From the UHGV virus genome UHGV-1367834: a stretch of 38,620 nt of DNA; one strand, given 5' to 3'. Origin of the DNA: a virus. The notes below the pieces were generated by a model. That model saw only the letters and a program-made list of their open reading frames with translations. It made no database searches and was not told where the DNA came from. The first letter of the stretch is position 1; each line of letters opens with the position of its first letter. Position numbers and translations under genes: made by a program. Shown here one piece after another: positions 2,385 through 38,620 of this stretch.

Positions 2385-3153
2385 CTATGATATTCATTAC
2401 ACAGGTAGTAAAGGAAATTCAGTATCAATATATACTAATCAATTTAATATATTAGTTGATGCAGGTAAGCCTTACAAATTTATAGAGCCATTACTATATG
2501 AAAAACATTTTTTAATATTTACGCACAGACACGGTGACCATTTCAAACCAGCAGTATTTAGAAAAATACGTGAGAACTTCCCAAATATTAAAATTCTAGC
2601 AAATGAAGAAGTAAATAATTTAATGTTTGAAAAAACTAAAATGGGTGCAGATGTTGTTTTTAGTGATAACTTTCAATTTCAAATTGGTACAATGAAATTC
2701 ACAACTATTCAGAACTATCATGGTGCTGGTGAAGAATTAGTTGACTGTCATGGATTAATTATTGAAGATATTGAATCTGGTGAAGTATTATTATATGCAA
2801 CTGATTTAAGCACTACAATAGATTATCAGGAATATTTAGATAAAAACTCTTTACAAGTAGACTACTGTCTGTTAGAATCTAATTACAATCCTTTAGTAAT
2901 TGAATTTTATGAATTAACAAAAGCGCACACTGGTTTTGATATTTTTAGTAACGGTTCATATCGTCACTTAGCTTCAACTGAACATAAAGAATTTACAGAA
3001 AAGTATTGCAAAGCAGATTCAATTGTGGTACCATTACACCAAAGCGAAACATATTCAACTTTTGAAGGACTAATAAAACGTACTAAAAAATCAGATAACA
3101 AGATTACAGAGAAAGAGGTGAAAGCATGGTTGGAGAAAAAGAAACATATTTAG
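2338..3153 (+). CDS. metallo-beta-lactamase-fold hydrolase
   Basis: HxHxDH motif (FTHRHGDHF), with later His and Asp residues typical of the MBL fold. The start is uncertain: the ATG at 2338 overlaps the upstream gene, and a TTG at about 2368 with a GGAGG RBS is an alternative. Confidence 0.65.
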   Translation: MEKEKRTEVGNLSAFNYDIHYTGSKGNSVSIYTNQFNILVDAGKPYKFIEPLLYEKHFLIFTHRHGDHFKPAVFRKIRENFPNIKILANEEVNNLMFEKTKMGADVVFSDNFQFQIGTMKFTTIQNYHGAGEELVDCHGLIIEDIESGEVLLYATDLSTTIDYQEYLDKNSLQVDYCLLESNYNPLVIEFYELTKAHTGFDIFSNGSYRHLASTEHKEFTEKYCKADSIVVPLHQSETYSTFEGLIKRTKKSDNKITEKEVKAWLEKKKHI

Positions 3154-3650
3154 ATATAAAAGCTTATGAGGGATTATATCTAGTTAGTAATTTAGGTAGA
3201 GTTAAAAGAAAATATATTGATTCAGAAAGGATATTAAAAGGGTATGAAAACGAATGTGGATATATAGTTGTTTGTTTGTCTAAAAACGGCAAATCTAAGA
3301 ACTTTAAAGTTCACCGCTTAGTAGCAGAAGCTTTTATACTAAACCCAGAAAACAAACCAACCGTAAACCATATTGATGAAGATAAAACAAATAATAAAGC
3401 TGACAATTTAGAATGGGCTACAATGAAGGAACAGAATAACCATGGTACGAGGAATAAACGCTCATCAAAAACGCAAGGAATGAAAATAAAAGCAATAGAT
3501 ATTGCAAATGGTGAATATAATATCTACAACTCACAACAAGAATGCGCTAAGAGACTGAACATTATGCAATCAAGTATTAGTCAATGTATTAAAGGAAATA
3601 TGAAACAAACTGGAGGTTATATTTTTGAAAAAATCACAAATGAGTTATAA
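3126..3650 (+). CDS. HNH homing endonuclease (NUMOD4/HNH_3 type)
   Basis: Motifs KAYEGLYLVSNLGRVKR...[15 protein letters not shown]...NNHG, C-terminal tail GGYIFEKI. RBS AGAGGTG upstream. Confidence 0.8.
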   Translation: MVGEKETYLDIKAYEGLYLVSNLGRVKRKYIDSERILKGYENECGYIVVCLSKNGKSKNFKVHRLVAEAFILNPENKPTVNHIDEDKTNNKADNLEWATMKEQNNHGTRNKRSSKTQGMKIKAIDIANGEYNIYNSQQECAKRLNIMQSSISQCIKGNMKQTGGYIFEKITNEL

Positions 3651-6226: not shown

Positions 6227-6451
6227 ATGAAAAACAGATTCAAGATAGGACAATACGTAGAACTTAAAAATGACAATCACAATGGTATTGGTAGTAAAGG
6301 TGATAAGGTAGTTATACTAGCTAAACTATTTAAACTAGTAGATGGTGTAGATCTTATCTGTAGATTCTCTAATGGGTGTACAGAAGGTTTCTTACAACGT
6401 GAGTTGAAATTAGCAACAAAAACACTTGACAGAATCACATTAATAAAGTAG
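6227..6451 (+). CDS. hypothetical protein
   Basis: The track ORF runs 6179-6451. The ATG at about 6227 has the RBS AAGAGAGG at a proper spacing. Confidence 0.55.
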   Translation: MKNRFKIGQYVELKNDNHNGIGSKGDKVVILAKLFKLVDGVDLICRFSNGCTEGFLQRELKLATKTLDRITLIK

Positions 6452-6485
6452 AATAATAGTATAAACAAATTGGAGGAATTAACAC

Positions 6486-8777
6486 ATGAAAAATATTGCA
6501 GAATTTAAAAAGGCACCAGAACTAGCTGAAAAATTATTGGAGGTATTCAGTAATCTAAAAGGTAATTCACGAAGTCTTGACCCAATGAGAGCTGGTCAAC
6601 ATGATGTGGTTGTGATTGAATCTACCAAAAAGTTATCAGCAAAAGGAAAAGAAATGAAAGTAGTTAAAATGCGGTCATTAGAAGATGGTAGGGACGTTAT
6701 AAGCTACATCATGAAGTTTCGTAAATATGACTGGGACAAATGGAAAAATGTTGAAGTTGGTGACCGTTTATTAATTGATTTAAAATTTAGCAATGGTTTT
6801 GCTACAGTCAAACCTATTAGAAGTATTTCAAAAGGTAATGATACACCATTTAAACCAAGTGAAGCATTAACAAAACAAACCATTTTATTATTTGATATTG
6901 AGATTTTTAAACATGATAGTTTATTTATATTTCGTGATTACTTCACCAAAGAATGGTTTATCATTAATAATGACCTTGACGAATTACGCAAGTTTTATCT
7001 TGAATACCGTGATTCAATGTTTATTGGGTATAATAATGCGTCATATGATAACAATGTAATGCGTGGGTATTTACAAGGCAAAAATGCTTATCAGATGTCT
7101 AAGACAATTATTGAATCAGATAATAGAGGTCTAGTTTATAAGATGTTTGATAGCCATAAAACACCATTGTTTGGAATGGACCTGTACCAAGATAACAAAG
7201 GTTTTAGCTTAAAAGAGCATTCAGCATTCTTAGGTATCAACATTAAAGAAACAGAAGTAGATTTTGACATGGATAGACCATTGACAGATGAAGAAAAAGA
7301 GAAAAACGTTGCATACTGTATGAATGATGTATTAGCAACTGAAAAACGTTTTGAACAAAACATTGGTATGTTATTGGCTAAAGCAACCATTGCTTTAATG
7401 TTTGACATGGATAAGACAGACCTATTACAAACCAATGCTAATTTAACAGCTAAGTTACTTGGTGCAACTAAACAAGAAGTTAGACCAGACTTAACAGACC
7501 CATTAGAATTAGATAAACGATTAAACATTAATACAAAAGAAATTGCAGAAGCATATCTTAACCATGAGTTTGAACTAAATGAAGATGGTAAATTAAATGT
7601 GTCATTAGAGTACACGGACGAAGATGGATATACAATGATTTTTGGTAGTGGTGGTGTACATGGTGCTAAAGCCAGTTATATTCACATTGGAATGTTCCCA
7701 ATGCGTGACTGGGGTTCATTATACCCAAACACAATGGAACAATTCAACTTACTATCAAGAAATATTCCAAAGGATAAGATTCACCGTTATGGTGACTTGC
7801 TAAAACAACGTATGGACGCTAAGTATTCAGGTGAAGAAGTGGCAAACATTAAAGGTGTAGAAGTACCAACATATGTAATGATTAACGGTATCAAGTTACC
7901 ATTGAACACTAAGTTTGGTGCTACTGGTGCGCAGTTCAATGGTTTATATGACCCAAGAAACCAATTCTTGGTTTGTGCAACTGGTCAATTGATTATGACA
8001 AACATGTATGAATTAATTAAAGGTAAGGCACAGTTCATTCAATCAAATACAGATGCACACGCATATATTCCAAACAGTGAAGCAGATGACAAAGCTATTG
8101 ATGAAGCTTTAGATGAATTTGCTAACAAGATTGGGCTAACATTAGATAAGGATATGTTCCGTGAAATTTGGCAAAAAGATGTAAATAACTACATTGCAGT
8201 ACAACCAAATGGAAAAGTAAAAGTAAAAGGTGCTATTGGCTTAACAGGTGGCATGAAAGTGTCAAAAGCGATTGTATCTAATGCGTTCATTAATTACCTA
8301 GTAGCTGGTAAAGATTATAAAGACTTTATCAATGAATGTAATGAACTAAGACAGTTTCAAATTATTACTAAAACAGGTTGGACCTTTGATAGAACGGTTG
8401 CACGTGATAGTGAAGGTAATGAGTTCAACGCACAGAAGGTTAACCGTGTGTTTGCAGTAAAAGACAAAACTAATGCAGTAGAATTGTTTAAGGTCAAAGA
8501 AGGTCAATTATTAGATATTGAAGCTGATGAATTTAAGGATAACATTTCATATACAAAAGGACTGGCAAACGCACCAGAATACTACACAATCAGTAATGAA
8601 GCGATTGGCGAAGGTATTACAATTGATGAAGTTGACAAACAATACTATATTGACCAAGTAGAAGATACTCTTGAACTATGGTTTGGTGAAAATTGGAAAG
8701 AACGTATTGAACAAGCACATCATGAACGAGAATTACAAGGATTCAAACCAGTGGAAGTAAAAAATTATATTGACTAA
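6486..8777 (+). CDS. family B DNA polymerase with a 3'-5' exonuclease domain
   Basis: Exo I motif LLFDIE, Exo II motif YNNASYDNNV, Exo III motif YCMNDV. Polymerase motif A-like DWGSLYPNTM and motif C-like SNTDA. Strong RBS TTGGAGGAATT. Confidence 0.85.
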   Translation: MKNIAEFKKAPELAEKLLEVFSNLKGNSRSLDPMRAGQHDVVVIESTKKLSAKGKEMKVVKMRSLEDGRDVISYIMKFRKYDWDKWKNVEVGDRLLIDLKFSNGFATVKPIRSISKGNDTPFKPSEALTKQTILLFDIEIFKHDSLFIFRDYFTKEWFIINNDLDELRKFYLEYRDSMFIGYNNASYDNNVMRGYLQGKNAYQMSKTIIESDNRGLVYKMFDSHKTPLFGMDLYQDNKGFSLKEHSAFLGINIKETEVDFDMDRPLTDEEKEKNVAYCMNDVLATEKRFEQNIGMLLAKATIALMFDMDKTDLLQTNANLTAKLLGATKQEVRPDLTDPLELDKRLNINTKEIAEAYLNHEFELNEDGKLNVSLEYTDEDGYTMIFGSGGVHGAKASYIHIGMFPMRDWGSLYPNTMEQFNLLSRNIPKDKIHRYGDLLKQRMDAKYSGEEVANIKGVEVPTYVMINGIKLPLNTKFGATGAQFNGLYDPRNQFLVCATGQLIMTNMYELIKGKAQFIQSNTDAHAYIPNSEADDKAIDEALDEFANKIGLTLDKDMFREIWQKDVNNYIAVQPNGKVKVKGAIGLTGGMKVSKAIVSNAFINYLVAGKDYKDFINECNELRQFQIITKTGWTFDRTVARDSEGNEFNAQKVNRVFAVKDKTNAVELFKVKEGQLLDIEADEFKDNISYTKGLANAPEYYTISNEAIGEGITIDEVDKQYYIDQVEDTLELWFGENWKERIEQAHHERELQGFKPVEVKNYID

Positions 8778-8839: not shown

Positions 8840-9438
8840 ATGAACGCACTTGAAGTTAAAAGTGTAAAAGAATATACTGTTTTACCAGTACCACGAAATG
8901 CAATTCGTGATTTTATTGAAGAATGGCACTACACACACACTCTATAAATGGTCTACAATCATCATACTGTTTTGGTCTATATTGTGGTAATGAATTAATT
9001 GGCGCTATGATATATGGTGGCTTAGGTATGGCAAATGTTTGGAAGAAATACGGTGAAACCAAGGAGGAAGTTTTGGAACTTCGTAGACTATGTTTGATTG
9101 ATGATACTAAACGTAATGCAGAATCGTACTTCATTGGTAAAACATTGAAATGGTTACGTATGAATACAACTGTAAAAACTATTGTAAGTTATGCAGACCC
9201 AAATCATGGGCATGAAGGTATCATTTATAAAGCAACAAACTTCACGTTAGTAGGAAAGACAACTAAAACTAAAGTTATAAAATACGGTGATAAGACATAT
9301 CATGATAAAGCAATCAGAACGAAATACAAAGGTAAACTGAAACCATTTGCGCAACGACTAGTTGATGCTTTAAACAGTGGTGAAGCTTATTATATTGAAC
9401 AAGAACCTAAAAATATTTATGTAAAGGAATTGATTTAA
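8840..9438 (+). CDS. hypothetical protein split by a frameshift at a (CA)5 tract; the ORFs are 8840-8947 and 8923-9438
   Basis: A strong RBS (TAGGAGGAATTTAAATG) precedes the ATG at 8840, but that frame stops after ...EEWHYTHTL. The reading continues in another frame as HTHSINGLQSSYCFGLYCGNELIGAMIYGG..., and that second ORF has no RBS of its own. The junction lies in the tract ACACACACAC at about 8931-8940. Confidence 0.5.
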
Positions 9439-20559: not shown

Positions 20560-20588
20560 AAAAAGAAGAGCTGTTACGCTCTTCTAAG
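20560..20588 (-). terminator. intrinsic terminator after the major tail gene and its conserved 3' element
   Basis: On the minus strand the hairpin AGAAGAGCGTAACAGCTCTTCT is followed by TTTTTTATTT. Confidence 0.55.
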
Positions 20589-20659
20589 TCAATTCAATTG
20601 ATACACTTGTATCTGCTGGTGTCACCTGTCCTACCACAGGTGGTGTACTAGGGCAATTG
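20589..20659 (-). repeat. copy 1 of a 71-nt conserved 3'-terminal element (last four codons of the major tail gene plus 59 nt)
   Basis: Identical to 23561-23631 at 70 of 71 positions by eye. On the mRNA it reads CAAUUGCCCUAGUACACCACCUGUGGUAGGACAGGUGACACCAGCAGAUACAAGUGUAUCAAUUGAAUUGA. Confidence 0.8.
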
Positions 20660-21286: not shown

Positions 21287-21841
21287 TTATGCGAATGTTA
21301 TTGAGAACCCCTTGTGTGTTTTTCGTTTACCTCGTAAGACTTTGTTAACATGTCCGCTATCACCATTGTGTTCTACACAGAACTCTCTAACTGTTCTATA
21401 ATAGAATGACTCTCCGTTGTTATTTGTACATATAATCCCATTAAATTTAAAACCATATATGGTGTCCATCTTTTTAAATTGTGACTCTTCTGGAAAAACT
21501 TGCTCTTTTCTCTTTTTTGATATATTATTTTTTGTAGTATCAGTATGATGTCTATTGTGCATTACACCATTACCACCAGCTGTTATATTATATCCATCAA
21601 CTGTAGTGTTGTATTTTTCTATTAACTTCATTTCTAGTTCGTTAGCTTCATCTTTTGTTAATCCTTCTCTTATTATAAAGTGGTTGAATCCATCCCATCC
21701 GTATTTTTGAATTGCATTGTAGAACTTGTGTGAACTACGATAGGTAGAACCGTTACCCCACCTAGTGTTTACTTTCTGCATAGTTTGACCAAAGTATTTT
21801 TTATTATTTTCTTTGTTTATATGCAAATATACTGTATACAT
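21287..21841 (-). CDS. GIY-YIG homing endonuclease
   Basis: N-terminus MYTVYLHINKENNKKYFGQT with an R/E/N catalytic block (RWGNG...YNAIQKYGWDGFNHFIIREGL...EANELEMKLI). The C-terminal region is DNA-binding-like. It is free-standing between the tail-terminator-like gene and the major tail gene. RBS GAGGTG. Confidence 0.85.
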   Translation of the reverse strand: MYTVYLHINKENNKKYFGQTMQKVNTRWGNGSTYRSSHKFYNAIQKYGWDGFNHFIIREGLTKDEANELEMKLIEKYNTTVDGYNITAGGNGVMHNRHHTDTTKNNISKKRKEQVFPEESQFKKMDTIYGFKFNGIICTNNNGESFYYRTVREFCVEHNGDSGHVNKVLRGKRKTHKGFSITFA

Positions 21842-23550: not shown

Positions 23551-23560
23551 AGTGTTTAAC

Positions 23561-23631
23561 TCAATTCAATTGATACACTTGTATCTGCTGGTGTCACCTG
23601 CCCTACCACAGGTGGTGTACTAGGGCAATTG
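23561..23631 (-). repeat. copy 2 of the 71-nt conserved 3'-terminal element (last four codons of the capsid gene plus 59 nt)
   Basis: See copy 1. Both genes end in CAA-UUG-CCC-UAG (QLP, stop). Confidence 0.8.
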
Positions 23632-24852
23632 TGGTGTTAATGTAATGAATTTACCAGCGTTTTTGTCTACTACTTTAGCATCAAAACGCATGAAGATTGC
23701 TAAGTATTGACCGTAAATTTCGTGGTCAATCCAACGAGCAGTAGTTTCAGCACGATTGAAGAATGTTGCAAATGCTACTGGGTCGCCTAAGAATGCCACT
23801 TTATCACCTTTGTTACCTAACATTTCATCTTTCAACACTGTTACTGGAACACCAAACAATGATTTACCAGACTGTGCTGTAATGTCAGTTTGTAATAAGT
23901 AACGACCTTCACCGTCTTTCATGATGTCAACTGCGTTGTAGAATGATTGAGTAACAATTAATTCTAAACCGTAAGCTGGGTCGAAACCAGTGTTGATTTG
24001 AGTTTTGATATCATCTAATGATTTAGCTGTTACTGCTGTAGCTGTTTTTAACAAGTTAGCTAAAACAAAGTTAGTTGTGTTTAAGCCTTGACGTTGTACT
24101 GAATCAGCAATAATTCCAGCTAAGTCGTCCGCGGAATCATCTAATGATTCTTGTGATACAACAATTTGACCACGGTAAGTTGATACGTTGTAAGGTACTT
24201 CTTCAAATTCAGGTTTTGCCAATGCTGGGTTTTTTGCCAACTCTTCAACTGTCACCATTTTTGCAGTAGTTGATTTCAAGATTGGGTATTTACCGCCAGA
24301 AGTTTTTACTTTGATACTATTCACTTTATTACGTAAGTCAACAACTGTTTCTGGTAATTTACGTGCTTTTGTGATAATATCTTCTGGAATAATTGCTTCT
24401 GCGTCTGTTGATTTAACTTGTCCGTCACCAACCGCACGTGTTTCGTTAAATGATTTTACGCTAGTTGATTTTGAAGTTACGTAGTCTAAAAAGGCACGTT
24501 GTTCTGTTACTGGCTCTGCTAACTCTTTACCATTGATTTTTACTTTCTCCATGTCAATATCTTCTCCTTTTACGTTCTCTAGTGAACGTTTTTCTTTCTT
24601 TGGTTCTTCCTTTGGTTCTTCCTTTGGTTCGTCTTTGACTTCGTCCTTTGGTTCTTCTTTAGGTTCTTCTTTAGGTTCTTCCTTTTTGACCTCGTCTTTA
24701 GGTGCTTCTGCTTTATCTTTTGCACGTTCTTTGTTTTCAGCTGGTGTTTCATCTTTCAAAGCTTCTAACTGTTCAATAACTTTTTTAGCTTCGTCAAGTT
24801 TACCTTCTGCCAACAAAGATTTTGCTTGCGCTTCTAACTCTGCCTTATTCAT
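23620..24852 (-). CDS. major capsid protein (HK97 fold) with an N-terminal scaffold-like coiled-coil/delta region containing (EEPK)n repeats
   Basis: 410 aa. The N-terminal roughly 100 aa is a charged coiled-coil with PKEEPKEEPKDEVKDEPKEEPKEEPKKE. The remainder is of HK97 capsid type (...GQIVVSQESLDD..., ...FDAKVVD...). RBS AAGGAG. Confidence 0.8.
   Translation of the reverse strand: MNKAELEAQAKSLLAEGKLDEAKKVIEQLEALKDETPAENKERAKDKAEAPKDEVKKEEPKEEPKEEPKDEVKDEPKEEPKEEPKKEKRSLENVKGEDIDMEKVKINGKELAEPVTEQRAFLDYVTSKSTSVKSFNETRAVGDGQVKSTDAEAIIPEDIITKARKLPETVVDLRNKVNSIKVKTSGGKYPILKSTTAKMVTVEELAKNPALAKPEFEEVPYNVSTYRGQIVVSQESLDDSADDLAGIIADSVQRQGLNTTNFVLANLLKTATAVTAKSLDDIKTQINTGFDPAYGLELIVTQSFYNAVDIMKDGEGRYLLQTDITAQSGKSLFGVPVTVLKDEMLGNKGDKVAFLGDPVAFATFFNRAETTARWIDHEIYGQYLAIFMRFDAKVVDKNAGKFITLTPQLP
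24596..24705. repeat. imperfect 15-nt tandem repeats (GGTTCTTCCTTTGGT-like) encoding the capsid (EEPK)n region
   Basis: Visible reiteration of TTCTTCCTTTGGTTC and TTCTTCTTTAGGTTC units. Confidence 0.6.
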
Positions 24853-27234: not shown

Positions 27235-28959
27235 TTAAATACCAAAGCCAAATGTACCTTGCTCTAACATGTTTTCAAAACTTGAATATCCAAAGTCATA
27301 ATACATTGCTTCACTCATTGCATTTATTAAAGCGTCCAATGAATCAATCTTGTTACGATTCATTTTCTTTTCAATTGCTATGTTGTCAGCAAACTCTTTC
27401 ATATACGCATTATATATCGCTGTATTGAGTAGTGGGTTGTTTTGATGTATTATATCACCTTTGTATATTGCGTCCCTTAGATACTTTGTAGGGGCGTTTA
27501 AATACTGTATCCGCTGTGGTACTTCAATTAGATAGCGTTCACCGAAAACTTCCGCTAGTCGCAAGACTGATTGTGAAGCTTGGTGACCATCATAGAAAAT
27601 ACCTTGTAGGTCCAAATCATATGTTTCAACAAAATCAACTATCCAGTCGCACATGTCCGCATGGTCAATCAATCCTGATTCTAACTTACTAATTGAAACG
27701 ATGCCTTCATTCTCATATTGGCGATATGGTATTTTGTCCTCTTGAATTTTCTTTTCAATACCTCCAATTGATGAAATGAAACCATGTGTATTTACGAGTA
27801 ACTTCTCTTCTTCTGCAATTGGTATAATCCAGCTAACCGCTGTTATATCTTTTGTACGTGATAAGTCCATTCCAATAAATACAGGACGTTTTCTAATATC
27901 ATATTCTTTTGTTGCTTTGATTGCGTCCCAACTTTCTTTATCCATAAAGCTATCTTGTGAAGCTTGTACCCAGAAATTCATTTCTTTAGTTAACCAACCA
28001 CTCATGTCACCTTTTGCTTTATACTCTGCCAATGAATTAACCTTATGTTCGTACATGGTTTCATACAATTGTGTATTCTCAAACAGTGGGTTTGATTTTA
28101 TCCAATTGGCTTGGTCATCAACTTCGCTGATACTATCCATTTCCCAACATAAAGCAAGGTATGCGTCTGCTTCAACCTCTTCATTTAATAGCTTAGTTAT
28201 AAATGGATATTCTATGCTGTGCATTGGTCCATTAAGATTTTTAGTTGTTGTACTAATAATCAAAATCAAACCTTGTGGTTGTTGTGATTGTGAACTTTCC
28301 AATACCTCAATTAATGCTGTGCTTTTTGCTTCTCCGTATTCATCTAATACACCGCAAAGTACGTCTAGTCCGTCTAAACTATCTGCGTCACTTGCTAAAG
28401 GTTTAACAGTTGATTCATCTTCTAAATGTTCAATGTCATATTTGTTTACCTTAGTAATTTTACGCACACTATCACTTGAATTTCTCAATGCTTTAAGCTG
28501 TGATTTTAACATACGGAATACAATTCCAGCTTGTTCTTTAGTATTTGCGCCAGCTACAATCTGTCTTGAAGCTTTTGGATATTGTCCTAAGATGAACTCA
28601 TACAATGAAATACCAGCAACCAGAATTGATTTACCGTTTTTACGTGCTAAACTGATATATACTTTTCTGAATCTACGCATTTTATTACTCTTTTTGCGCC
28701 AACCATAGATTAATGCTACAATAAACTTCTGGAACTTAGCTAGTTTATTTGTCTTTTTACTTTTTGGGTCTGGTAACATTTCAATAAATGCGACTGGTTC
28801 ATATGTTTCGCTTGGGTCGTAATAGTATGGATAAGCTGGGTCTTTTGATTTTTCTAGGTCCTTTTCATGTCGTCTAATCGCTTGCTTGATTTTATTACCT
28901 ATTGGTATTTGATTATCTCTTATATAATTAATATAATCAGCTACAAAGTCTTGATTCAT
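27235..28959 (-). CDS. terL: terminase large subunit
   Basis: The N-terminus from the ATG is MNQDFVADYINYIRDNQIPIGNKIKQAIRRH..., typical of TerL. The size is right, and the ATPase region (MDLSRTKDITAVS) and nuclease region are present. RBS AGGAGG. The track ORF starts 11 codons earlier at a TTG. Confidence 0.9.
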   Translation of the reverse strand: MNQDFVADYINYIRDNQIPIGNKIKQAIRRHEKDLEKSKDPAYPYYYDPSETYEPVAFIEMLPDPKSKKTNKLAKFQKFIVALIYGWRKKSNKMRRFRKVYISLARKNGKSILVAGISLYEFILGQYPKASRQIVAGANTKEQAGIVFRMLKSQLKALRNSSDSVRKITKVNKYDIEHLEDESTVKPLASDADSLDGLDVLCGVLDEYGEAKSTALIEVLESSQSQQPQGLILIISTTTKNLNGPMHSIEYPFITKLLNEEVEADAYLALCWEMDSISEVDDQANWIKSNPLFENTQLYETMYEHKVNSLAEYKAKGDMSGWLTKEMNFWVQASQDSFMDKESWDAIKATKEYDIRKRPVFIGMDLSRTKDITAVSWIIPIAEEEKLLVNTHGFISSIGGIEKKIQEDKIPYRQYENEGIVSISKLESGLIDHADMCDWIVDFVETYDLDLQGIFYDGHQASQSVLRLAEVFGERYLIEVPQRIQYLNAPTKYLRDAIYKGDIIHQNNPLLNTAIYNAYMKEFADNIAIEKKMNRNKIDSLDALINAMSEAMYYDFGYSSFENMLEQGTFGFGI

Positions 28960-28980
28960 TTTGTATACCTCCTCATATGT

Positions 28981-28991
28981 ATTATAGCACA
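28981..28991 (-). promoter_or_regulatory. extended -10 promoter (TGTGCTATAAT) for terL
   Basis: The reverse complement of ATTATAGCACA lies immediately after the terminator of the non-coding unit. Confidence 0.55.
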
Positions 28992-29048
28992 AATAAAAAG
29001 ACTTAGGTCATGAGTTTATCCAAAGGGGATAACAAACTTACCTAAGTC
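28991..29048 (-). terminator. intrinsic terminator ending the terS-terL intergenic transcript
   Basis: On the minus strand GACUUAGGU and ACCUAAGUC form a 9-bp stem (with extendable inner pairing) followed by UUUUUAUUUG. Confidence 0.6.
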
Positions 29049-29492
29049 AATTGGTCGCACGACAACCGTTCTTTATACTGCACCTCATGTGTACAGTTAA
29101 TGTTCAACCCTTATAGGTGGCTGGACACCATTCTTAAATGATTAAGTGTTGTTATGTGGTTGGCGGACCTTCCACATACGGACTGCCTCACAACACTTAA
29201 TAGAGTTTTGCTCACTTGGTTAAGGAGGTAAGAGCATTCCTTTTTGTGTTGATTGCTACCCATCTCATGATAGCCCTTCTGGTTAGGTTTTCACACCTAT
29301 GGTTGCGCTACTGTTAAGCATAGTAGTTGCTACTCCTAGTATTATTTTATACTTAGTTAAGCCCCTAGGCGGGAGCAAGCTGTCAACCATAGCCCGCTAA
29401 TATTTCCGCAACTTATACCAAAGTTGTGCCTGAATGATATCACCCACTATCATTCTAAAACCTACAAATAATCTGGAAGGCGTTTTCCATAA
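28995..29492 (-). ncRNA. candidate large structured non-coding RNA of about 500 nt, with its own promoter and terminator, between terS and terL
   Basis: No ORF of 60 aa or more on either strand. A TGTGTTATAAT -10 starts directly after the terS stop, and an intrinsic terminator ends the unit. The region is visibly richer in G+C than its surroundings and has many stems, for example TTAAGTGTTGT / ACAACACTTAA (11 bp), ATGTGG / CCACAT and GGCGGG / CCCGC. Confidence 0.5.
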
Positions 29493-29496
29493 ATAC

Positions 29497-29507
29497 ATTA
29501 TAACACA
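29497..29507 (-). promoter_or_regulatory. extended -10 promoter (TGTGTTATAAT) driving the intergenic non-coding transcript
   Basis: The reverse complement of ATTATAACACA starts within 10 nt of the terS stop codon. Confidence 0.5.
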
Positions 29508-29512
29508 AAATA

Positions 29513-29986
29513 TTAACCTTGTGTGCGCATTTTAAGCAATTGACCTAGTGGGTCTTTTGATTCATCTTCAACTTCTTTTGGTGCTACCAATTTTAATCTT
29601 GAATTGATAGTTAAACCTAGGTCATTTGTTGCACTTTTAATTTGCTTACTATAACCCATCATGGCGGTTACTTTGGGGTTCAGTTTTCCGTCCTCTGTCA
29701 CTTCACCCTCAATAGAGACCTCCTCTGCTAATTTACTATATAAGTAAACGTAGTTACAATAAGAAACCAGTGTTTGTGAATCTAACTCACTAAGCGGTAA
29801 TGACCCAGCAAAGTTACCAATTCTTTCCCATTCTGGATATGCACCCCTTAACAACCCCATTGGAAAATATGAAAAGTCTAAAGGTTCGTAATTATATAAC
29901 TTCTCCTCTTCTTTTTTCTTTTGAAATTGTTGTTCTTGTGTTAAATTACCCTGTTGTGCATTTAATAACTTACGTGGTCTACCCAT
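29513..29986 (-). CDS. terS: terminase small subunit (P27-like)
   Basis: 157 aa. The basic N-terminus MGRPRKLL, its size and its position directly upstream of terL resemble P27-family TerS. RBS AAGGAGGTG. Confidence 0.7.
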   Translation of the reverse strand: MGRPRKLLNAQQGNLTQEQQFQKKKEEEKLYNYEPLDFSYFPMGLLRGAYPEWERIGNFAGSLPLSELDSQTLVSYCNYVYLYSKLAEEVSIEGEVTEDGKLNPKVTAMMGYSKQIKSATNDLGLTINSRLKLVAPKEVEDESKDPLGQLLKMRTQG

Positions 29987-30479
29987 TATTTTTCACCTCC
30001 TTATATTTAAAGGTGTAACCTCCACATGTTTTGCGCTTACCTTTTAAAACTTTTACAATTGAACCATCATCAATTTTCAAATCTCTAGCGCAACCTCTAA
30101 TTGAATCATACTCAATTCCATTTGAACAAATTATTTGTTTTGATTTTTGTGTTTTCTGCTGTGTTTCAATTTGTCGTTTGGTTCTTGTTCCATGATTGAT
30201 ATTCTCTTTAGATGTTGACCATTCTAGGTTAGATACAAAATTATTTGTTTTGCATTCATCAATATGGTTTACCTGTGGTTTGTTATCTGGGTTTGGTATA
30301 AATGCTTCTGCAACTAAACGGTGTACCCTCCTAAAGTGTGCTTTATTATCTTTCCACAATGTAACTGTCTTATATCCATCTTTGTCAATATTTTGTTTTA
30401 ACCGTTTGACGTTGTTATATACATTACCATAGTTGTCAACGTAGTATCTACCTTTAAATTCTAATACATCTTTCTTCAT
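29979..30479 (-). CDS. HNH homing endonuclease (NUMOD4/HNH_3 type)
   Basis: Motifs [32 protein letters not shown]...NINHG, C-terminal tail GGYTFKYK. The likely start is the second ATG (MKKDVLEF...) with RBS AGGAGG. A TGTTATACT -10 lies about 25 nt upstream. Confidence 0.8.
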   Translation of the reverse strand: MKKDVLEFKGRYYVDNYGNVYNNVKRLKQNIDKDGYKTVTLWKDNKAHFRRVHRLVAEAFIPNPDNKPQVNHIDECKTNNFVSNLEWSTSKENINHGTRTKRQIETQQKTQKSKQIICSNGIEYDSIRGCARDLKIDDGSIVKVLKGKRKTCGGYTFKYKEVKNNG

Positions 30480-30504
30480 TGTATAACCTCCTATATAATA
30501 TTTA

Positions 30505-30517
30505 ATAGTATAACACA
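30505..30517 (-). promoter_or_regulatory. extended -10 (TGTGTTATACT) for the HNH gene upstream of terS
   Basis: Read on the minus strand just upstream of the HNH RBS. Confidence 0.4.
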
Positions 30518-30535
30518 TTATATAATAGGTGTAAA

Positions 30536-30775: not shown

Positions 30776-30984
30776 AAAACTGTTGTTTGAGAAACCAGCT
30801 TTTGTGCTGTTTGTGAGGGAAGAAATTCGTATTAGTGAGATTATGAAACAATGTGTGAAACGTTTGATATTATTAAAAAGAAACCTGTTTTGAATCGTTT
30901 TTTACGAGGGAAAAAGGCTGTTTTGAAACTTCGTTTTTAGAATTTTGTGTGAAGAGAAGGAATCTCCGATTGTAGCCACCAAAA

Positions 30985-31050
30985 TATTGAGGGGGGGCAT
31001 TAAAATTTTCAGCTACCCTCCCCTCGCTTTTGGCGCTATCCCCCTTAAAA
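30985..31050. other. G/C homopolymer-tract hairpin region; candidate cos site and/or bidirectional terminator
   Basis: GAGGGGGGGCATTAAAATTTTCAGCTACCCTCCCCTCGCTTTTGGCGCTATCCCCCTT contains G7, CCCTCCCCTC and C5 tracts, which stand out in an AT-rich genome. It sits between the classic HNH gene and terS. Confidence 0.4.
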
Positions 31051-31446
31051 TTATTTATGGTTAGCCCTACCTGCATTTTTAAAGGAATGAGCGTGGTCCT
31101 CTTTATTGTGACAGGATTGACAAATTGATTCTAAATTATTAATATCTAAACGTTTTTCCCAACCAATTGGTGTACGTATTTCCTCCACATGGTGGACGAT
31201 AGTGGCAAGCGTCTTGGTGTGGTCATTGCGTTCACATACTTCACATAATGGATTGATACTTAACTTGTATTGTCTTAATCTTTTCCATTCACTTGACTGG
31301 TAGAACTCTGCATACCTTTTGTTCTGTGGATTAGTGCGCACATACTTATTGTATTGCGTGGCACTATTACCTTTGTGCTTAGCACAGTACACCTCTGGTT
31401 GCTTTACATATTCTCTACATAAAGCAAGCTTACATTTCTTATACAT
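31051..31446 (-). CDS. HNH endonuclease (classic zinc-finger HNH, terminase-associated type)
   Basis: CEVCERNDHTKTLATIVHHVEEI...NNLESICQSCHNKEDH carries the paired Cys and the H-N-H residues. The start is coupled to the upstream stop (TAATG). Confidence 0.8.
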   Translation of the reverse strand: MYKKCKLALCREYVKQPEVYCAKHKGNSATQYNKYVRTNPQNKRYAEFYQSSEWKRLRQYKLSINPLCEVCERNDHTKTLATIVHHVEEIRTPIGWEKRLDINNLESICQSCHNKEDHAHSFKNAGRANHK

Positions 31447-32280: not shown

Positions 32281-32320
32281 AACTGGTTTCATTATTTTTA
32301 AATTAATTTGAACAAAAGTG

Positions 32321-32351
32321 TTGACAACTACTATAGCACATGTTATAGTAG
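32321..32351 (+). promoter_or_regulatory. early promoter P4 (TTGACA, 17-nt spacer, TATAGT) with the inverted repeat CTACTATA-N8-TATAGTAG
   Basis: First + promoter of the right-hand early block. The palindrome spans the spacer and the -10. Confidence 0.6.
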
Positions 32352-32390
32352 GTACATAAGATAACAACAAACAAATTGGAGGAATTAAAA

Positions 32391-32525
32391 ATGACAAAAG
32401 AACAAATCAATGCAGAAGTGAAATTACAAGAAATGTTAGGTAACAAATTAGAAGTGATTCAATTAGGTAATGACATTTACATGTATCTTAATGGTGAATC
32501 ATACAAAACAGCTGAATTAATTTAA
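32391..32525 (+). CDS. small hypothetical protein of about 44 aa, not in the ORF track
   Basis: Strong RBS AATTGGAGGAATTAAAAATG downstream of promoter P4. The reading frame is MTKEQINAEVKLQEMLGNKLEVIQLGNDIYMYLNGESYKTAELI. Confidence 0.5.
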   Translation: MTKEQINAEVKLQEMLGNKLEVIQLGNDIYMYLNGESYKTAELI

Positions 32526-32539
32526 TAAAAATCAGAAAA

Positions 32540-32572
32540 GGGGTTGACAAGTTCAGCCCCAACTGATATACT
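32540..32572 (+). promoter_or_regulatory. early promoter P5 (TTGACA, 17-nt spacer, TATACT) with its -35 embedded in the GGGGTTGA/TCAGCCCC hairpin
   Basis: Duplicated module: 32530-32585 matches 36655-36710. Confidence 0.6.
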
Positions 32573-32601
32573 AAATATATAAATTAAAGGGAGGATATAA
32601 A

Positions 32602-33321
32602 ATGTTAGTATCAAAGAAAAAGCATGATTTATTGATTAAGAACTACAATGAGTTAGTAGATGATAGGGATAGATGGCAAGGAAGATGTATTCACCACGCA
32701 AACAACCTTGACAGAGCATACGAGGAGATAAACGAGTTAAGAGAAATGATTAGAGAGATTAAGAGAGAAAAGAATAGAGATATAAACAACCTAACATTTG
32801 AACGTGACACATATAAGGAAAAATACAAAGAATGGTTTCAAAACTTTATTAAAACAAAAGCAGAACTAGAAAAAGTTGACAAAATTGTTTTACAATATGA
32901 ACAACGAATTAATGAATTGGAGGAAAAAGAAATGACAAAATATGCTAAAATTACAAAATATTTAGGACCACATAACATTGACAAAAGACTTGGTTTAGAA
33001 ATTGGTAAAACATATAAAATTGTAGAATATAAGAGTCCTTTAACTGATAATTGCTATATTTATTTAAATGATGAATATCCATACTATTTCATTTCAGAAA
33101 GACAATATGAATTAGTAGAAAAAGAAGAAAAAGAAGAAACACCAACTTTTAAAACAACTATAGACTTGAAGTCTAGTGTACAAGCTAAAATTGACTCACT
33201 AACAACGGAAGCAGAACACTTATTCAAAAAGCGTGACCGCTTGGAGCAACAGGCAATTAACTTAAGCAAAAAGGCACGCAAACTTAACAAACTGATTGAA
33301 ACTATCAAAGAATTTGAATAA
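32602..33321 (+). CDS. hypothetical coiled-coil protein
   Basis: 239 aa, Glu/Lys-rich. RBS AAGGGAGGA downstream of P5. Confidence 0.6.
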   Translation: MLVSKKKHDLLIKNYNELVDDRDRWQGRCIHHANNLDRAYEEINELREMIREIKREKNRDINNLTFERDTYKEKYKEWFQNFIKTKAELEKVDKIVLQYEQRINELEEKEMTKYAKITKYLGPHNIDKRLGLEIGKTYKIVEYKSPLTDNCYIYLNDEYPYYFISERQYELVEKEEKEETPTFKTTIDLKSSVQAKIDSLTTEAEHLFKKRDRLEQQAINLSKKARKLNKLIETIKEFE

Positions 33322-34701: not shown

Positions 34702-34727
34702 ATATGCTATGATAAGGGAGAAAGTTA

Positions 34728-34756
34728 AATAAAACAGTTGACTTTCTCTTTTTTAG
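34728..34756 (+). promoter_or_regulatory. early promoter P7 (TTGACT, 17-nt spacer, TATAGT) upstream of the primase-helicase gene
   Basis: A third, partial copy of the AAACAGTTGACTTTCT module, followed by CATAAGATAT. Confidence 0.6.
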
Positions 34757-34796
34757 ATGATATAGTAATGTCATAAGATATTTAGGAGGAATAAGA

Positions 34797-36377: not shown

Positions 36378-36407
36378 AAATAATTTAAAGAAAGTTGACT
36401 AAAACAG

Positions 36408-36436
36408 TTGACTTTCTTTTTTTCACATGCTATACT
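36408..36436 (+). promoter_or_regulatory. early promoter P8 (TTGACT, 17-nt spacer, TATACT); duplicate of the P2 module
   Basis: See P2. Confidence 0.65.
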
Positions 36437-36467
36437 TAATTCATAAGTTAAGAGGAGGAATTAGACA

Positions 36468-36656
36468 ATGACAACTAAAGAAAAATACGAAAACAAATTA
36501 AAAAGATTAAATGAAAGATTTGACAAATTAAAATCAGAAATGATTGAAGCATACGACAAAGGAGATAACGAAAAAGGACATAGCTTGAACGACAAACTAG
36601 AAAACATATTAGATGTAATTCTACTAACTGAAACAGTATTAGAAAATTTAAAATAA
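36468..36656 (+). CDS. hypothetical small coiled-coil protein
   Basis: RBS AGAGGAGGAATT downstream of P8. Confidence 0.5.
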   Translation: MTTKEKYENKLKRLNERFDKLKSEMIEAYDKGDNEKGHSLNDKLENILDVILLTETVLENLK

Positions 36657-36671
36657 AAATCAGAAAAGGGG

Positions 36672-36700
36672 TTGACAAGTTCAACCCCAACTAATATACT
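36672..36700 (+). promoter_or_regulatory. early promoter P9 (TTGACA, 17-nt spacer, TATACT) inside the perfect hairpin GGGGTTGACAAGTTCAACCCC; duplicate of the P5 module
   Basis: See P5. Confidence 0.6.
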
Positions 36701-36730
36701 AAGTACATAAGTTAAAAGGAGGAAAACAAA

Positions 36731-37174
36731 ATGGACTTTCAAATTGGAACAGTAAAGAAAACACAAGGACAAGTAAAGAAACACGCTTCACAGTTTACAC
36801 ATAAGGAAGAAGAACAAGTATACAACGCACGAGAGCGTGTAAAAGACTTATGGTTAAAGCGTGGTATTAAGATTGGTTTTCACTTACAAGATAAAATCAG
36901 AAATGGTGAAACTAAATTTTCATATGAAATGACAATGAAAACCATGTTGAGTAGTACAATTGTAGAGTATAACGAAACAGGCGCAGACAAGCGTATTTTA
37001 CTACGTTCACACTATTCAAAAAACAAAGAAGTACAGTGTATTGTTGTGTCACTATTAAGTGGTAAAGTAATTACAAGCTATCTAAACAAAGTAGAGGACG
37101 TTCACAAGACACTTGACCCAAGACGGTATGACAAAAATTTAAAAATTAATTTACCAAAACACTTGACAAAGTAA
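36731..37174 (+). CDS. hypothetical protein
   Basis: RBS AAAGGAGGAAAACAAAATG downstream of P9. Confidence 0.55.
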   Translation: MDFQIGTVKKTQGQVKKHASQFTHKEEEQVYNARERVKDLWLKRGIKIGFHLQDKIRNGETKFSYEMTMKTMLSSTIVEYNETGADKRILLRSHYSKNKEVQCIVVSLLSGKVITSYLNKVEDVHKTLDPRRYDKNLKINLPKHLTK

Positions 37175-37192
37175 AAACAATCATTTATACTA
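37164..37192 (+). promoter_or_regulatory. early promoter P10 (TTGACA, 17-nt spacer, TATACT)
   Basis: Consensus hexamers with a 17-nt spacer; the -35 overlaps the 3' end of the upstream ORF. Confidence 0.55.
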
Positions 37193-37222
37193 AGTATATA
37201 ATCAATTAGGAGGAATAAGTAA

Positions 37223-37495
37223 ATGAAACATAAAGGATTAATTATTGGATTGGCAGTAGGATTAAGTTTTTCAGGAAGTACAGCAATGTTGGCAAACAAC
37301 TTAAACAAGCAGAAATTGAATGAAGCTAAACAAGAATTACACTTATACAAAGAATTGAACGAACGTCAACAAGATATTATTTTAGAATATAAAGTTGTAT
37401 CAGGAATTGAAGTATCAAGTATCACTCAATCATTAGATAATGAACAATTAATTAACGAATTAGAAAAACGAATTAACAAATTGGAGGATAAATAA
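37223..37495 (+). CDS. membrane-anchored or secreted coiled-coil protein
   Basis: N-terminal signal or transmembrane segment (MKHKGLIIGLAVGLSFSGSTAMLA) followed by a coiled-coil. RBS TTAGGAGGAATAAG downstream of P10. Confidence 0.5.
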   Translation: MKHKGLIIGLAVGLSFSGSTAMLANNLNKQKLNEAKQELHLYKELNERQQDIILEYKVVSGIEVSSITQSLDNEQLINELEKRINKLEDK

Positions 37496-38105: not shown

Positions 38106-38448
38106 ATTCAGTAGAAAAGTTGTAGATTATTTGGAATCTAAAGGTGCAGTAGTAAACGTCAATACGGCAACCATATATGACCGTGTTGGTCGCTCTGATG
38201 TTGAAGCGTGTTACGAAGGTCACTATATCGCGTTAGAACTCAAAACAGGTAACTACCAACCTGATAAATTACAGATTAGATATTTACAAGATGTTAGGAA
38301 TGCTGGTGGGTATGGACTATTATTAAGAGACAAGTTAGATGATTTGATTGAATTATTAAATTATTTAGATAATTGGGATGAGGTAGACTATATTGAGCCT
38401 GATTTACCAGAAATAAATTATGACGAATTGGAGATTGACTATGATTGA
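38077..38448 (+). CDS. VRR-NUC domain nuclease (PD-(D/E)xK superfamily)
   Basis: GRSDVEACYEGHYIALELKTGNYQPDKLQIRYLQDVRNAGGY fits the VRR-NUC pattern D-x(n)-E-x-K followed by a conserved Q. Confidence 0.65.
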   Translation: MVQYVKQEAKFSRKVVDYLESKGAVVNVNTATIYDRVGRSDVEACYEGHYIALELKTGNYQPDKLQIRYLQDVRNAGGYGLLLRDKLDDLIELLNYLDNWDEVDYIEPDLPEINYDELEIDYD

Positions 38449-38620
38449 AGAATGGAAGGATATTAAAGATTATGAAGGTTTATATAAGGTAAGTAACTTA
38501 GGTAGAGTTAAAAGTAACTATAAAGGACTAGAACGACTATTGAAACCACTTTCTAAGAATAACGGTTATTTATTTGTAATTTTATATAAAGATACCAAAC
38601 CTACAAAATATTATGTCCAC
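38441..38620 (+). CDS. HNH homing endonuclease, 3' truncated by the window edge
   Basis: MIEEWKDIKDYEGLYKVSNLGRVKS has the same N-terminal motif as the other NUMOD4/HNH_3 paralogs. Its start overlaps the VRR-NUC stop codon. Confidence 0.75.
   Translation, partial: MIEEWKDIKDYEGLYKVSNLGRVKSNYKGLERLLKPLSKNNGYLFVILYKDTKPTKYYVH

Follow-up and report, generated by a model that had tools for sequence, protein, structure and literature searches.

A predicted accessory gene for a mosaic, hairpin-rich non-coding RNA between terS and terL of an Enterococcus siphophage

We analyzed the interval between the terminase genes terS and terL in UHGV virus genome UHGV-1367834 (38,620 nucleotides [nt], hereafter the window), which represents a virulent siphophage (genus Efquatrovirus) of Enterococcus. 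The interval matched 106 phage records, all from Enterococcus, with phage heks as the best match (92% identity). In GenBank records of efquatroviruses it is either unannotated or carries calls for small "hypothetical proteins." Our results indicate that the locus is very probably an accessory and autonomous gene that specifies a ~500-nt non-coding RNA, predicted to be transcribed codirectionally with terS and terL. Its features, in the order in which they are read, are as follows.

29513-29986, minus strand: terS (Pfam Terminase_4)
29497-29507, minus strand: promoter P, an extended -10 element (TGTGTTATAAT) 5 nt past the terS stop codon
28991-29490, minus strand: predicted non-coding RNA of ~500 nt; inferred 5' end at the A 7 nt after the -10, 3' end in the U tract
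29475-29488, minus strand: module A, the small hairpin GGAA-aacgcc-UUCC
29432-29456, minus strand: module B, a hairpin
29407-29429, minus strand: module C, a hairpin
29284-29397, minus strand: module D, with helices Da (29375-29397), Db (29335-29369), Dc (29308-29326), and Dd (29284-29299)
29255-29274, minus strand: module E, the hairpin GCUAUC/GGUAGC
29203-29242, minus strand: module F, a hairpin (29222-29242), a conserved linker, and the small hairpin GAG-caaaa-CUC
29142-29200, minus strand: module G, an 11-bp outer stem, an internal loop, a 7-bp inner stem, and the conserved loop AGGUCCGCCAA
29053-29129, minus strand: modules H1 (29099-29129), H2 (29078-29096), and I (29053-29067), three G-U-rich hairpins
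29000-29048, minus strand: terminator T, a two-tier hairpin predicted by folding (GACUUAGGU...ACCUAAGUC) with a 9-bp outer stem
28991-28999, minus strand: U tract (UUUUUAUUU) after the terminator hairpin
28981-28991, minus strand: promoter Q of terL (TGTGCTATAAT), outside the predicted RNA
28968-28974, minus strand: ribosome-binding site of terL (GAGGAGG), between promoter Q and the ATG
28957-28959, minus strand: start codon (ATG) of terL, whose product has TerL_ATPase and TerL_nuclease domains

An earlier note, written from the letters of the stretch and a list of its open reading frames (ORFs), had described this interval as a self-contained promoter-to-terminator unit for a structured RNA on the minus strand. 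It had stated that no ORF of 60 or more amino acids lies between the two genes, and this was borne out: the longest ORF on either strand has 50 amino acids. No short reading frame was conserved across relatives, and in the closest relative with an identical module order the frame of that longest ORF comprises 26 amino acids.

The transcription signals that the note had listed were likewise all present in the sequence: an extended -10 element within 10 nt of the terS stop, an intrinsic terminator with a 9-bp stem, and a separate promoter and ribosome-binding site for terL. Transcription would start at promoter P and end at the two-tier terminator and its U tract, after which terL transcription would restart from its own promoter. 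Because of this promoter Q/ribosome-binding site junction, the unit can sit in front of terL without cutting it off. The motif TGnTATAATR occurs 12 times in the window, with 2.2 occurrences expected (none of 100 shuffled sequences reached 12), mostly ahead of minus-strand late genes and directly after terminators. Judged by its sequence, promoter P is of the phage's own putative late-region type, a host-type extended -10. A simple promoter scanner missed it because that scanner demands a -35 element, and a consensus terminator scanner missed terminator T because the 31-nt "loop" of the latter is itself a hairpin (the scanner allows loops of up to 8 nt). For comparison with relatives, 41 distinct versions of the terS-terL interval were collected from IMG/VR, metagenomes, and GenBank phages, and two were added later (43). 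Promoter P was found in most of the 41 aligned relatives and was missing from the versions L005, L011, and Ef6.1.

The G+C fraction is 0.42-0.43 within the stretch and 0.31-0.36 in its flanks, in agreement with the note's statement that the interior is richer in G+C; that of the predicted RNA is 40.8% versus 34.1% for the whole window. Folding z-scores relative to shuffled sequence were -2.75 for the minus strand and -3.23 for the plus strand. That both strands fold better than shuffled sequence, in an interval lying between the terminase genes, would suit a DNA-level site such as a pac or cos recognition region (the note had considered a pac site) or a single-strand origin. Efquatroviruses have 9-nt 3' cohesive ends (PMC4445525), and two features lie ~1.5 kb upstream of the interval.

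31051-31446: cos-type HNH gene (Pfam PF01844)
30780-31050, minus strand: probable cos region, a G-rich non-coding stretch that lies downstream of the HNH gene and ahead of a small ORF, the homing endonuclease gene, and terS

The order of HNH gene, G-rich non-coding stretch, and P27-type terS places cos near 30780-31050, and the start of the phiSHEF2 record aligns there, at window position ~30948. Neither the published cos sequence of IME-EF4 nor that of IME-EFm1 was found in the window. In addition, the RNA unit is missing from viable isolates, and its wobble pairs are strand-asymmetric, as detailed below. We give a DNA-level site in the terS-terL interval almost no credence.

Rather than forming a single compact fold, the RNA would consist of at least 12 hairpins in series, each folding independently. 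Conservation across related phages, which the note had proposed as a check, revealed compensatory changes in modules B, C, D, E, F, G, and T. In module B, 98.3% of the alignment cells were paired, with double changes in two of six pairs, and in module C the values were 97.5% and five of eight pairs (alignment A2). Taken together, B and C had 97.9% of cells paired and 7 of 14 pairs changed on both sides, a score that none of 500 shuffles reached, and sliding the pairing partners lowered pairing to 24-56%. Module D (alignment A4) was 99.2% paired, with three double-change pairs and one pair that was invariantly G-U; no shuffle out of 500 reached its score. One of its compensatory changes converts GCGGGC/GCUUGC to GUGGGC/GCUCAC. 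A candidate GGUUG/CAACC pseudoknot in module D was invariant across the sequences and hence carries no covariation information. All 46 cells of module E were paired (one compensatory pair; seven G-U and no A-C), and in module F the fifth stem pair covaried from A-U to C-G around an invariant loop core, GCUCUUA. Module G (alignment A3) was 98.2% paired, with double changes in 10 of 23 pairs, a value reached in 0 of 500 shuffles. Terminator T was paired in 141 of 141 cells, with double changes in 4 of 16 pairs when the copy in Enterococcus cecorum phage A40 (described below) was included. Hairpins H1, H2, and I were 97-100% paired, with 35 G-U, no A-C, and zero double changes, there being few variants to compare. 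Many of the sequences are closely related, which the shuffle controls do not take into account; the slide controls and the G-U asymmetry form the more robust portion of this evidence.

Helices of the coding-sense strand contained 76 G-U pairs and 4 A-C mismatches. This excess indicates that the minus-strand transcript, and not duplex DNA, was the target of selection, and, combined with the compensatory changes, it argues for a transcribed structured RNA and not for a pac or cos site, an intron, or a peptide gene. No group I or group II intron covariance model matched, consistent with the note's view that the stretch is not an intron. Its list of helices held in part: TTAAGTGTTGT/ACAACACTTAA with ATGTGG/CCACAT covaried, as did CTACT/AGTAG, whereas the proposed GCGGG/CCCGC helix did not stand, since GCGGGC pairs with GCUUGC instead. 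The same data bear on the idea that the stretch is a non-functional recombination scar, in which terminator-promoter repeats drive duplications and deletions and the hairpins are decaying terminator copies. The unit is indeed flanked by two T-rich TGTGYTATAAT promoter copies, shows extreme presence/absence variation, and occurs with terminator variants (T, T1, and a minimal T). However, compensatory changes in at least seven hairpins, the strand-specific selection for pairing expressed in the 76:4 ratio of G-U over A-C, and the retention of the unit at 87% identity through a transfer to phage A40 make a scar very unlikely indeed.

Several loops and linkers were conserved while their stems covaried (GCUCUUA, AGGUCCGCCAA, and UUAACCAAGUGAGCAAAACUC). 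Such sequences could pair with host or phage messenger RNAs, for example at Shine-Dalgarno regions, if the transcript gave rise to one or several small RNAs that act by base pairing, and C-rich or CCUCC-type sequences occur in module F and at the apex of T. Complementary matches of 9-12 nt, however, are expected by chance in 38 kb, and the CCUCC of module F belongs to a covarying stem, for which reason an anti-Shine-Dalgarno role for it was dropped. We consider a base-pairing precursor decidedly unlikely. A resemblance of GUUUUAGAAUG to the type II-A clustered regularly interspaced short palindromic repeat (CRISPR) sequence of E. faecalis was also dropped, as the element is not conserved and lies inside a covarying stem. 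CAUG palindromes, inspected by eye as possible kissing loops, were not enriched.

The note had compared the RNA with ROOL and GOLLD, and this likeness was not upheld. Covariance models for ROOL (RF03087), GOLLD (RF01998), HEARO, and introns gave no match in 28800-29700 even at E<=10, a threshold at which Rfam as a whole returned five chance-level matches in that region. No Rfam family reached threshold in the window, a scan of the window for transfer RNAs (tRNAs) and transfer-messenger RNA found no tRNA genes, and relatives contain the RNA with modules removed. Nor are the modules copies of each other: no direct-repeat family of at least 30 nt was found in the intergenic region, and a search for module paralogues elsewhere in the window returned promoter matches only. 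Local similarity was detected between X1, a module of sister phages, and module D2 (z = 4.8; 0 of 1,000 shuffles), which folds differently; this suggests common ancestry and hints that one module gave rise to another by duplication. The note's reading as a whole was thus partly supported, and the observation on which it stood was confirmed. The dispensable, mosaic, and horizontally mobile nature of the unit, and the AbiF-type hairpin of sister phages, are beyond what a single sequence could reveal.

Across relatives, the interval is collinear and can be written P-[X1/X2/X3]-A-B-C-D-E-F-G-H-I-[T1-S]-T-Q. Any module may be missing in relatives, a few are unique to single phages, and among the sampled relatives heks alone has the exact module order of the window. 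Interval length ranges from 47 to 612 nt. In the 47-nt version (L011), which lacks the unit, the terL promoter comes immediately after the terS stop and a small terminator; the unit is also missing from Ef6.1, which has hairpin I and a minimal terminator only, without promoter P. Mean identity among Efquatrovirus relatives was 94% for modules F-G and 99.7% for T; for the neighboring 300 nt it was 77% at the 3' end of terS and 86% at the 5' end of terL.

A copy was also found in the distantly related E. cecorum phage A40, whose proteins are mostly 30-60% identical to those of the window. A40 holds modules X2-D-H2-E-F-G at 87% identity behind its own TGATATAAT promoter, followed by a homologous terminator with compensatory changes in its stems. 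Besides the endolysin gene, the RNA unit is the sole long nucleotide similarity between A40 and the window. In A40 the unit has a nucleotide kinase gene on one side and small early ORFs on the other, and terS and terL overlap with no gap between them. This copy indicates that the unit moves as a promoter-RNA-terminator cassette, independent of an adjacent terL, and its location weakens every cis-regulatory reading.

Such a reading would make the unit a leader or insulator for the late operon, acting on its own transcript or on the terS/terL messenger RNA through RNase III processing, 5' or 3' stabilization, processive antitermination through T and numerous downstream terminators, or uncoupling of terS from terL. 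The unit immediately precedes terL, and in Ef6.1 hairpin I and the minimal T form a terS terminator without P; with L005, which also lacks P, this shows that parts of the array can be a 3' untranslated region. Modules G and T are interrupted helices of ~20 bp, which we take to resemble phage RNase III sites, and the loop of module F (GCUCUUA) resembles, by eye, the lambda boxA CGCUCUUA. The latter presumably counts against the idea, being of the E. coli type and not the Firmicutes rRNA-leader type. Moreover, the A40 unit is far from the terminase genes and is followed by a convergent terminator and by genes with promoters of their own, every genome, including those without the unit, supplies terL with a separate promoter and ribosome-binding site, and no module except the terminator is universal. 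We regard a cis-acting role as unlikely.

The distribution of the unit is narrow. Exact motifs of modules D, F, and G occurred in IMG/VR in Efquatrovirus contigs only, and a degenerate pattern for module G returned chance matches lacking the hairpin. A metagenome scan yielded close relatives plus chance matches, and a genome scan yielded one match, in a contig labeled as a Cyclobacteriaceae metagenome-assembled genome. BLAST of the window's RNA against plasmids gave no match even at E<=10, and a literature search found no Efquatrovirus transcriptome and no description of this RNA. The locus is a new RNA family confined to Efquatrovirus plus one transfer, with an unusual mosaic design.

When the sister loci were searched against Rfam under relaxed settings, one match recurred, to the 37-nt abiF RNA motif (RF03085). 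It involves the first module: X2 of A40 scored 32.6 bits, and X3 of phages RioGrande and phiSHEF4 scored 31.1 bits (E = 0.025-0.13). The hairpin starts ~7-10 nt from the predicted RNA start and consists of a 6-bp outer stem, a 3-bp inner stem, an 11-nt loop (CUCUUAACAAU), and a 3' internal loop of 5-6 nt; the conserved 11-nt loop of the abiF motif is CUCU(C/U)AAC(G/A)AU. Seven of nine pairs carried compensatory changes among seven phage hairpins, and the loop was invariant. BLAST of X3 against plasmids found matches directly upstream of genes for "Abi family proteins" in Legionella and Metabacillus, the Metabacillus neighbor being a Pfam Abi_2 protein (1.4e-53). Against the abiF model, whose cut-off is 37, these two plasmid sequences reached 42.0 and 39.6 bits, and they have the core CGCCUCUUAACAAUGCG in common with X3. 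Conversely, a covariance model built from the phage hairpins only (R1) recovered the two plasmid motifs at 37.7-37.8 bits. R1 also scored a copy in Bacillus phage phiNIT1 at 31.7 bits and X1 at 20-22 bits; X1 is an abiF-type scaffold with an expanded loop.

Abi_2 homologues were present on 440 plasmid records, with Enterococcus as the commonest genus (56 records). The leader of an E. faecium AbiF gene has a matching layout with a longer loop (z = 5.3 to X1, 5.6 to X3, and 6.0 to a genuine motif), and it matched R1 weakly (11.9 bits, E = 0.48); BLAST with this leader gave no noteworthy phage match. What comes after the hairpin in the sister phages is the remainder of the RNA and, beyond it, terL; as no toxin gene follows, the hairpin is an orphan. 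None of the 26 window ORFs scanned contained an Abi_2 domain. The window's copy differs from its sisters, showing none of the features that define abiF membership: a score of at least 37 bits, the hairpin architecture, and a position upstream of an Abi_2 gene. Its module A resembles just the first half of X1 and is probably a remnant of the 5' half of that module. The suggestion that module A itself is a degenerate abiF motif was not supported (z = 0.7 against the E. faecium AbiF leader and no R1 match).

Three loci in other genomes were also noted. In Enterococcus phage dArtagnan (LR991625, 1380-1990), a terS-terL gap of ~600 nt has two extended -10 promoters and, at the RNA start, the abiF-type hairpin AUGGGG-G-CGC-CUCUUAACAAU-GCG-UACCA-CCCCAU, followed by a G+C-rich structured body unrelated to that of the window, a terminator, a promoter, and terL. 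Bacillus phage phiNIT1 (AP013029, 1827-3064) has a 1.2-kb ORF-free stretch inside a tRNA island, with an abiF-type hairpin at 1995-2030 and a skipping-rope RNA (RF02924, 46.8 bits) at 2992-3062; a short BLAST match to its hairpin occurs in ~30 records of Bacillus phages, those of the SBSphiJ group among them. A truncated match to drum RNA (RF02958, 38.5 bits versus a cut-off of 43) lies ~470 nt upstream of an Abi family gene on E. faecium plasmid pFac90-54 (1-91).

The abiF-motif RNA RCd22 is the antitoxin of an AbiF toxin; it binds the protein directly and neutralizes it in trans (PMC12373285). In sister phages, the first module (X2, X3, or the loop-expanded X1) would be an orphan copy of this motif, and a phage that made this RNA but no toxin would hold AbiF silent. 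For a virulent phage with an orphan antitoxin RNA, the simplest reading is a decoy against host AbiF. More generally, the RNA may act in trans, its hairpins serving as decoys that bind host RNA-binding defense proteins. The window's copy would keep only remnant A; having no AbiF-type hairpin, it would need other partners for modules B to I. We extend the proposal to B-I because the locus is accessory, hypervariable, exchanged, and strongly structured and has conserved loops on covarying stems. A decoy function of the locus is possible, in our judgment slightly less probable than its opposite, and we see an even chance that an autonomous RNA gene and a decoy-RNA locus together account for the whole of the observations. 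That the window's own copy neutralizes AbiF has a low probability.

Several observations weigh against these proposals. The high identity of F-G and T could mean recent recombinational spread and not purifying selection, and the covariation counts tally sequences, not independent events. The X2 and X3 scores (31-33 bits) are under the Rfam gathering cut-off of 37. The window's RNA lacks the abiF hairpin: Rfam reported none at E<=10, and R1 with filters off found nothing in the intergenic region of the window. Modules B to I have no known look-alike, the plasmid collection giving no match even at E<=10, and, with no module universal except the terminator, a single shared function of the RNA body cannot be assumed.

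Position, predicted size, and hairpin content also agree with those of the cabRNAs, RNAs that activate cyclases of the cyclic oligonucleotide-based antiphage signaling system (CBASS). The unit could be such an RNA, or one linked to packaging, perhaps sensed by CBASS cyclases, with its variability reflecting escape from sensing, and dArtagnan has an unrelated structured RNA at the equivalent junction. The cabRNAs, however, lie within coding sequence, whereas the window's RNA is a separate intergenic unit. Furthermore, the unit is missing from some isolates and lies elsewhere in A40, which makes a packaging role unlikely. We consider this explanation very unlikely.

A broader version of the decoy proposal, which we hold to be rather improbable, is that the terS-terL locus of Enterococcus siphophages is an RNA-only anti-defense island, each hairpin mimicking the RNA of another host immune system, whether antitoxin, guide, or sensor ligand. 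The AbiF hairpin would then be the first module with a recognizable model, and B-I would point to undescribed Enterococcus defense proteins with RNA partners. A comparable ORF-free stretch occurs in the tRNA island of phiNIT1/SBSphiJ-type Bacillus phages. Efquatrovirus phages are therapeutic candidates against E. faecalis and E. faecium. If decoy RNAs are made, module content would help to forecast the strains that a phage is able to overcome, such as those with plasmid-borne AbiF. If the proposal is true, a protein-free, modular form of counter-defense would join the few RNA-based cases known, and hairpin look-alikes in host genomes would offer a route to new RNA-dependent defense systems. 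It would also give a possible function to some large non-coding phage regions, a question that ROOL, GOLLD, and cabRNA also raise.

Further along the minus strand, Pfam searches identified portal, protease, capsid, tail tube, and tail genes. Other features of the window are listed here.

29979-30518, directly upstream of terS: I-HmuI-type homing endonuclease gene (Pfam)
1803-2384, 3126-3650, 29979-30518, and 21287-21841: endonuclease genes, comprising I-HmuI-type paralogues and one GIY-YIG gene
49-142, 2109-2202, 3363-3456, 1847-1919, 3134-3206, and 38440-38512: repeats listed with the homing endonuclease genes
23620-24852: major capsid gene (Phage_capsid), with a 75-nt repeat across its stop codon
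20648-21223: tail tube gene (Phage_TTP_1), with the second copy of that repeat across its stop codon
5951-6036, 32291-32376, 34708-34793, and 36378-36463; 32524-32615 and 36652-36743; 6416-6495 and 37153-37232, plus strand: early promoter cassettes

HNH homing endonucleases of the I-HmuI type are encoded by at least three paralogous genes in the window (NUMOD4, HNH_3, and I-HmuI NUMOD-like domains), and the GIY-YIG gene lies inside the structural module. Some of the mosaicism around terS could stem from gene conversion associated with homing. The plus-strand early genes are preceded by repeated promoter-plus-ribosome-binding-site cassettes with TTGACx -35 and TATACT/TATAGT-type -10 elements. 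These differ from the extended -10 class of the late genes, and several have short matches in phage A40. An ORF at 8923-9438 (plus strand) matches the Mom protein family (PF25680, 2.2e-31), which suggests a putative DNA-modification function in the early region.

The 75-nt direct repeat (20585-20659 and 23557-23631, 97% identical, read on the minus strand) starts ~10 nt before the TAG stop codon of each late gene and extends ~60 nt past it. Directly after the stop it has the hairpin CACCUGU-GGUAGG-(G/A)CAGGUG, and in-frame read-through would append an identical 17 amino acids to the capsid and tail tube proteins. The repeat could serve as a signal for stop-codon read-through or be an element that the two 3' untranslated regions share.

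Among known systems, the abiF RNA (RF03085; RCd22 in the Clostridioides difficile phi027 prophage) has the same hairpin architecture and start offset as the sister copies, and both the abiF RNA and the sister loci have a sigma-A-type promoter and an intrinsic terminator. They differ in that the sister hairpin is fused to a long hairpin body with no adjacent abiF gene, and the window's copy lacks the motif. In the pseudo-ToxI of phage PhiTE, directed against ToxIN, and in RNA anti-CRISPRs, a phage copy of a defense RNA component switches the system off; these are tandem repeats or solitary CRISPR repeats. The same principle is proposed here by analogy, with the sister copies being single hairpins within a mosaic RNA. 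The ~36-nt tandem repeats of type III (ToxI-like) antitoxin arrays do not occur in the window's RNA.

Staphylococcal phages produce hairpin-rich cabRNAs of ~400 nt from terS, terL, or their boundary, which share no sequence with one another and whose longer forms evade the CBASS cyclase (PMC10686824). The likeness is that of a structured, hairpin-rich RNA of ~400-500 nt at the terS/terL boundary of a Firmicutes siphophage, in our case a predicted one, with sequence not conserved from one phage group to another. In contrast, cabRNAs lie inside coding sequence with no known promoter-terminator unit and are defined by activation of the CdnE cyclase. ROOL and GOLLD are large non-coding RNAs of phages of Lactobacillales and relatives that form multi-pseudoknot cages (PMC12286853). 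They have a conserved architecture and often lie beside tRNA islands, whereas the window's RNA would be a string of dispensable hairpins. Morons, as described by Hendrix and colleagues, are promoter-gene-terminator cassettes inserted between late-operon genes. The unit resembles such insertions in having its own promoter and terminator, in lying between two genes, and in being transferable and missing from close relatives; it differs in that its predicted cargo is an RNA and not a protein and in that its host phage is virulent.

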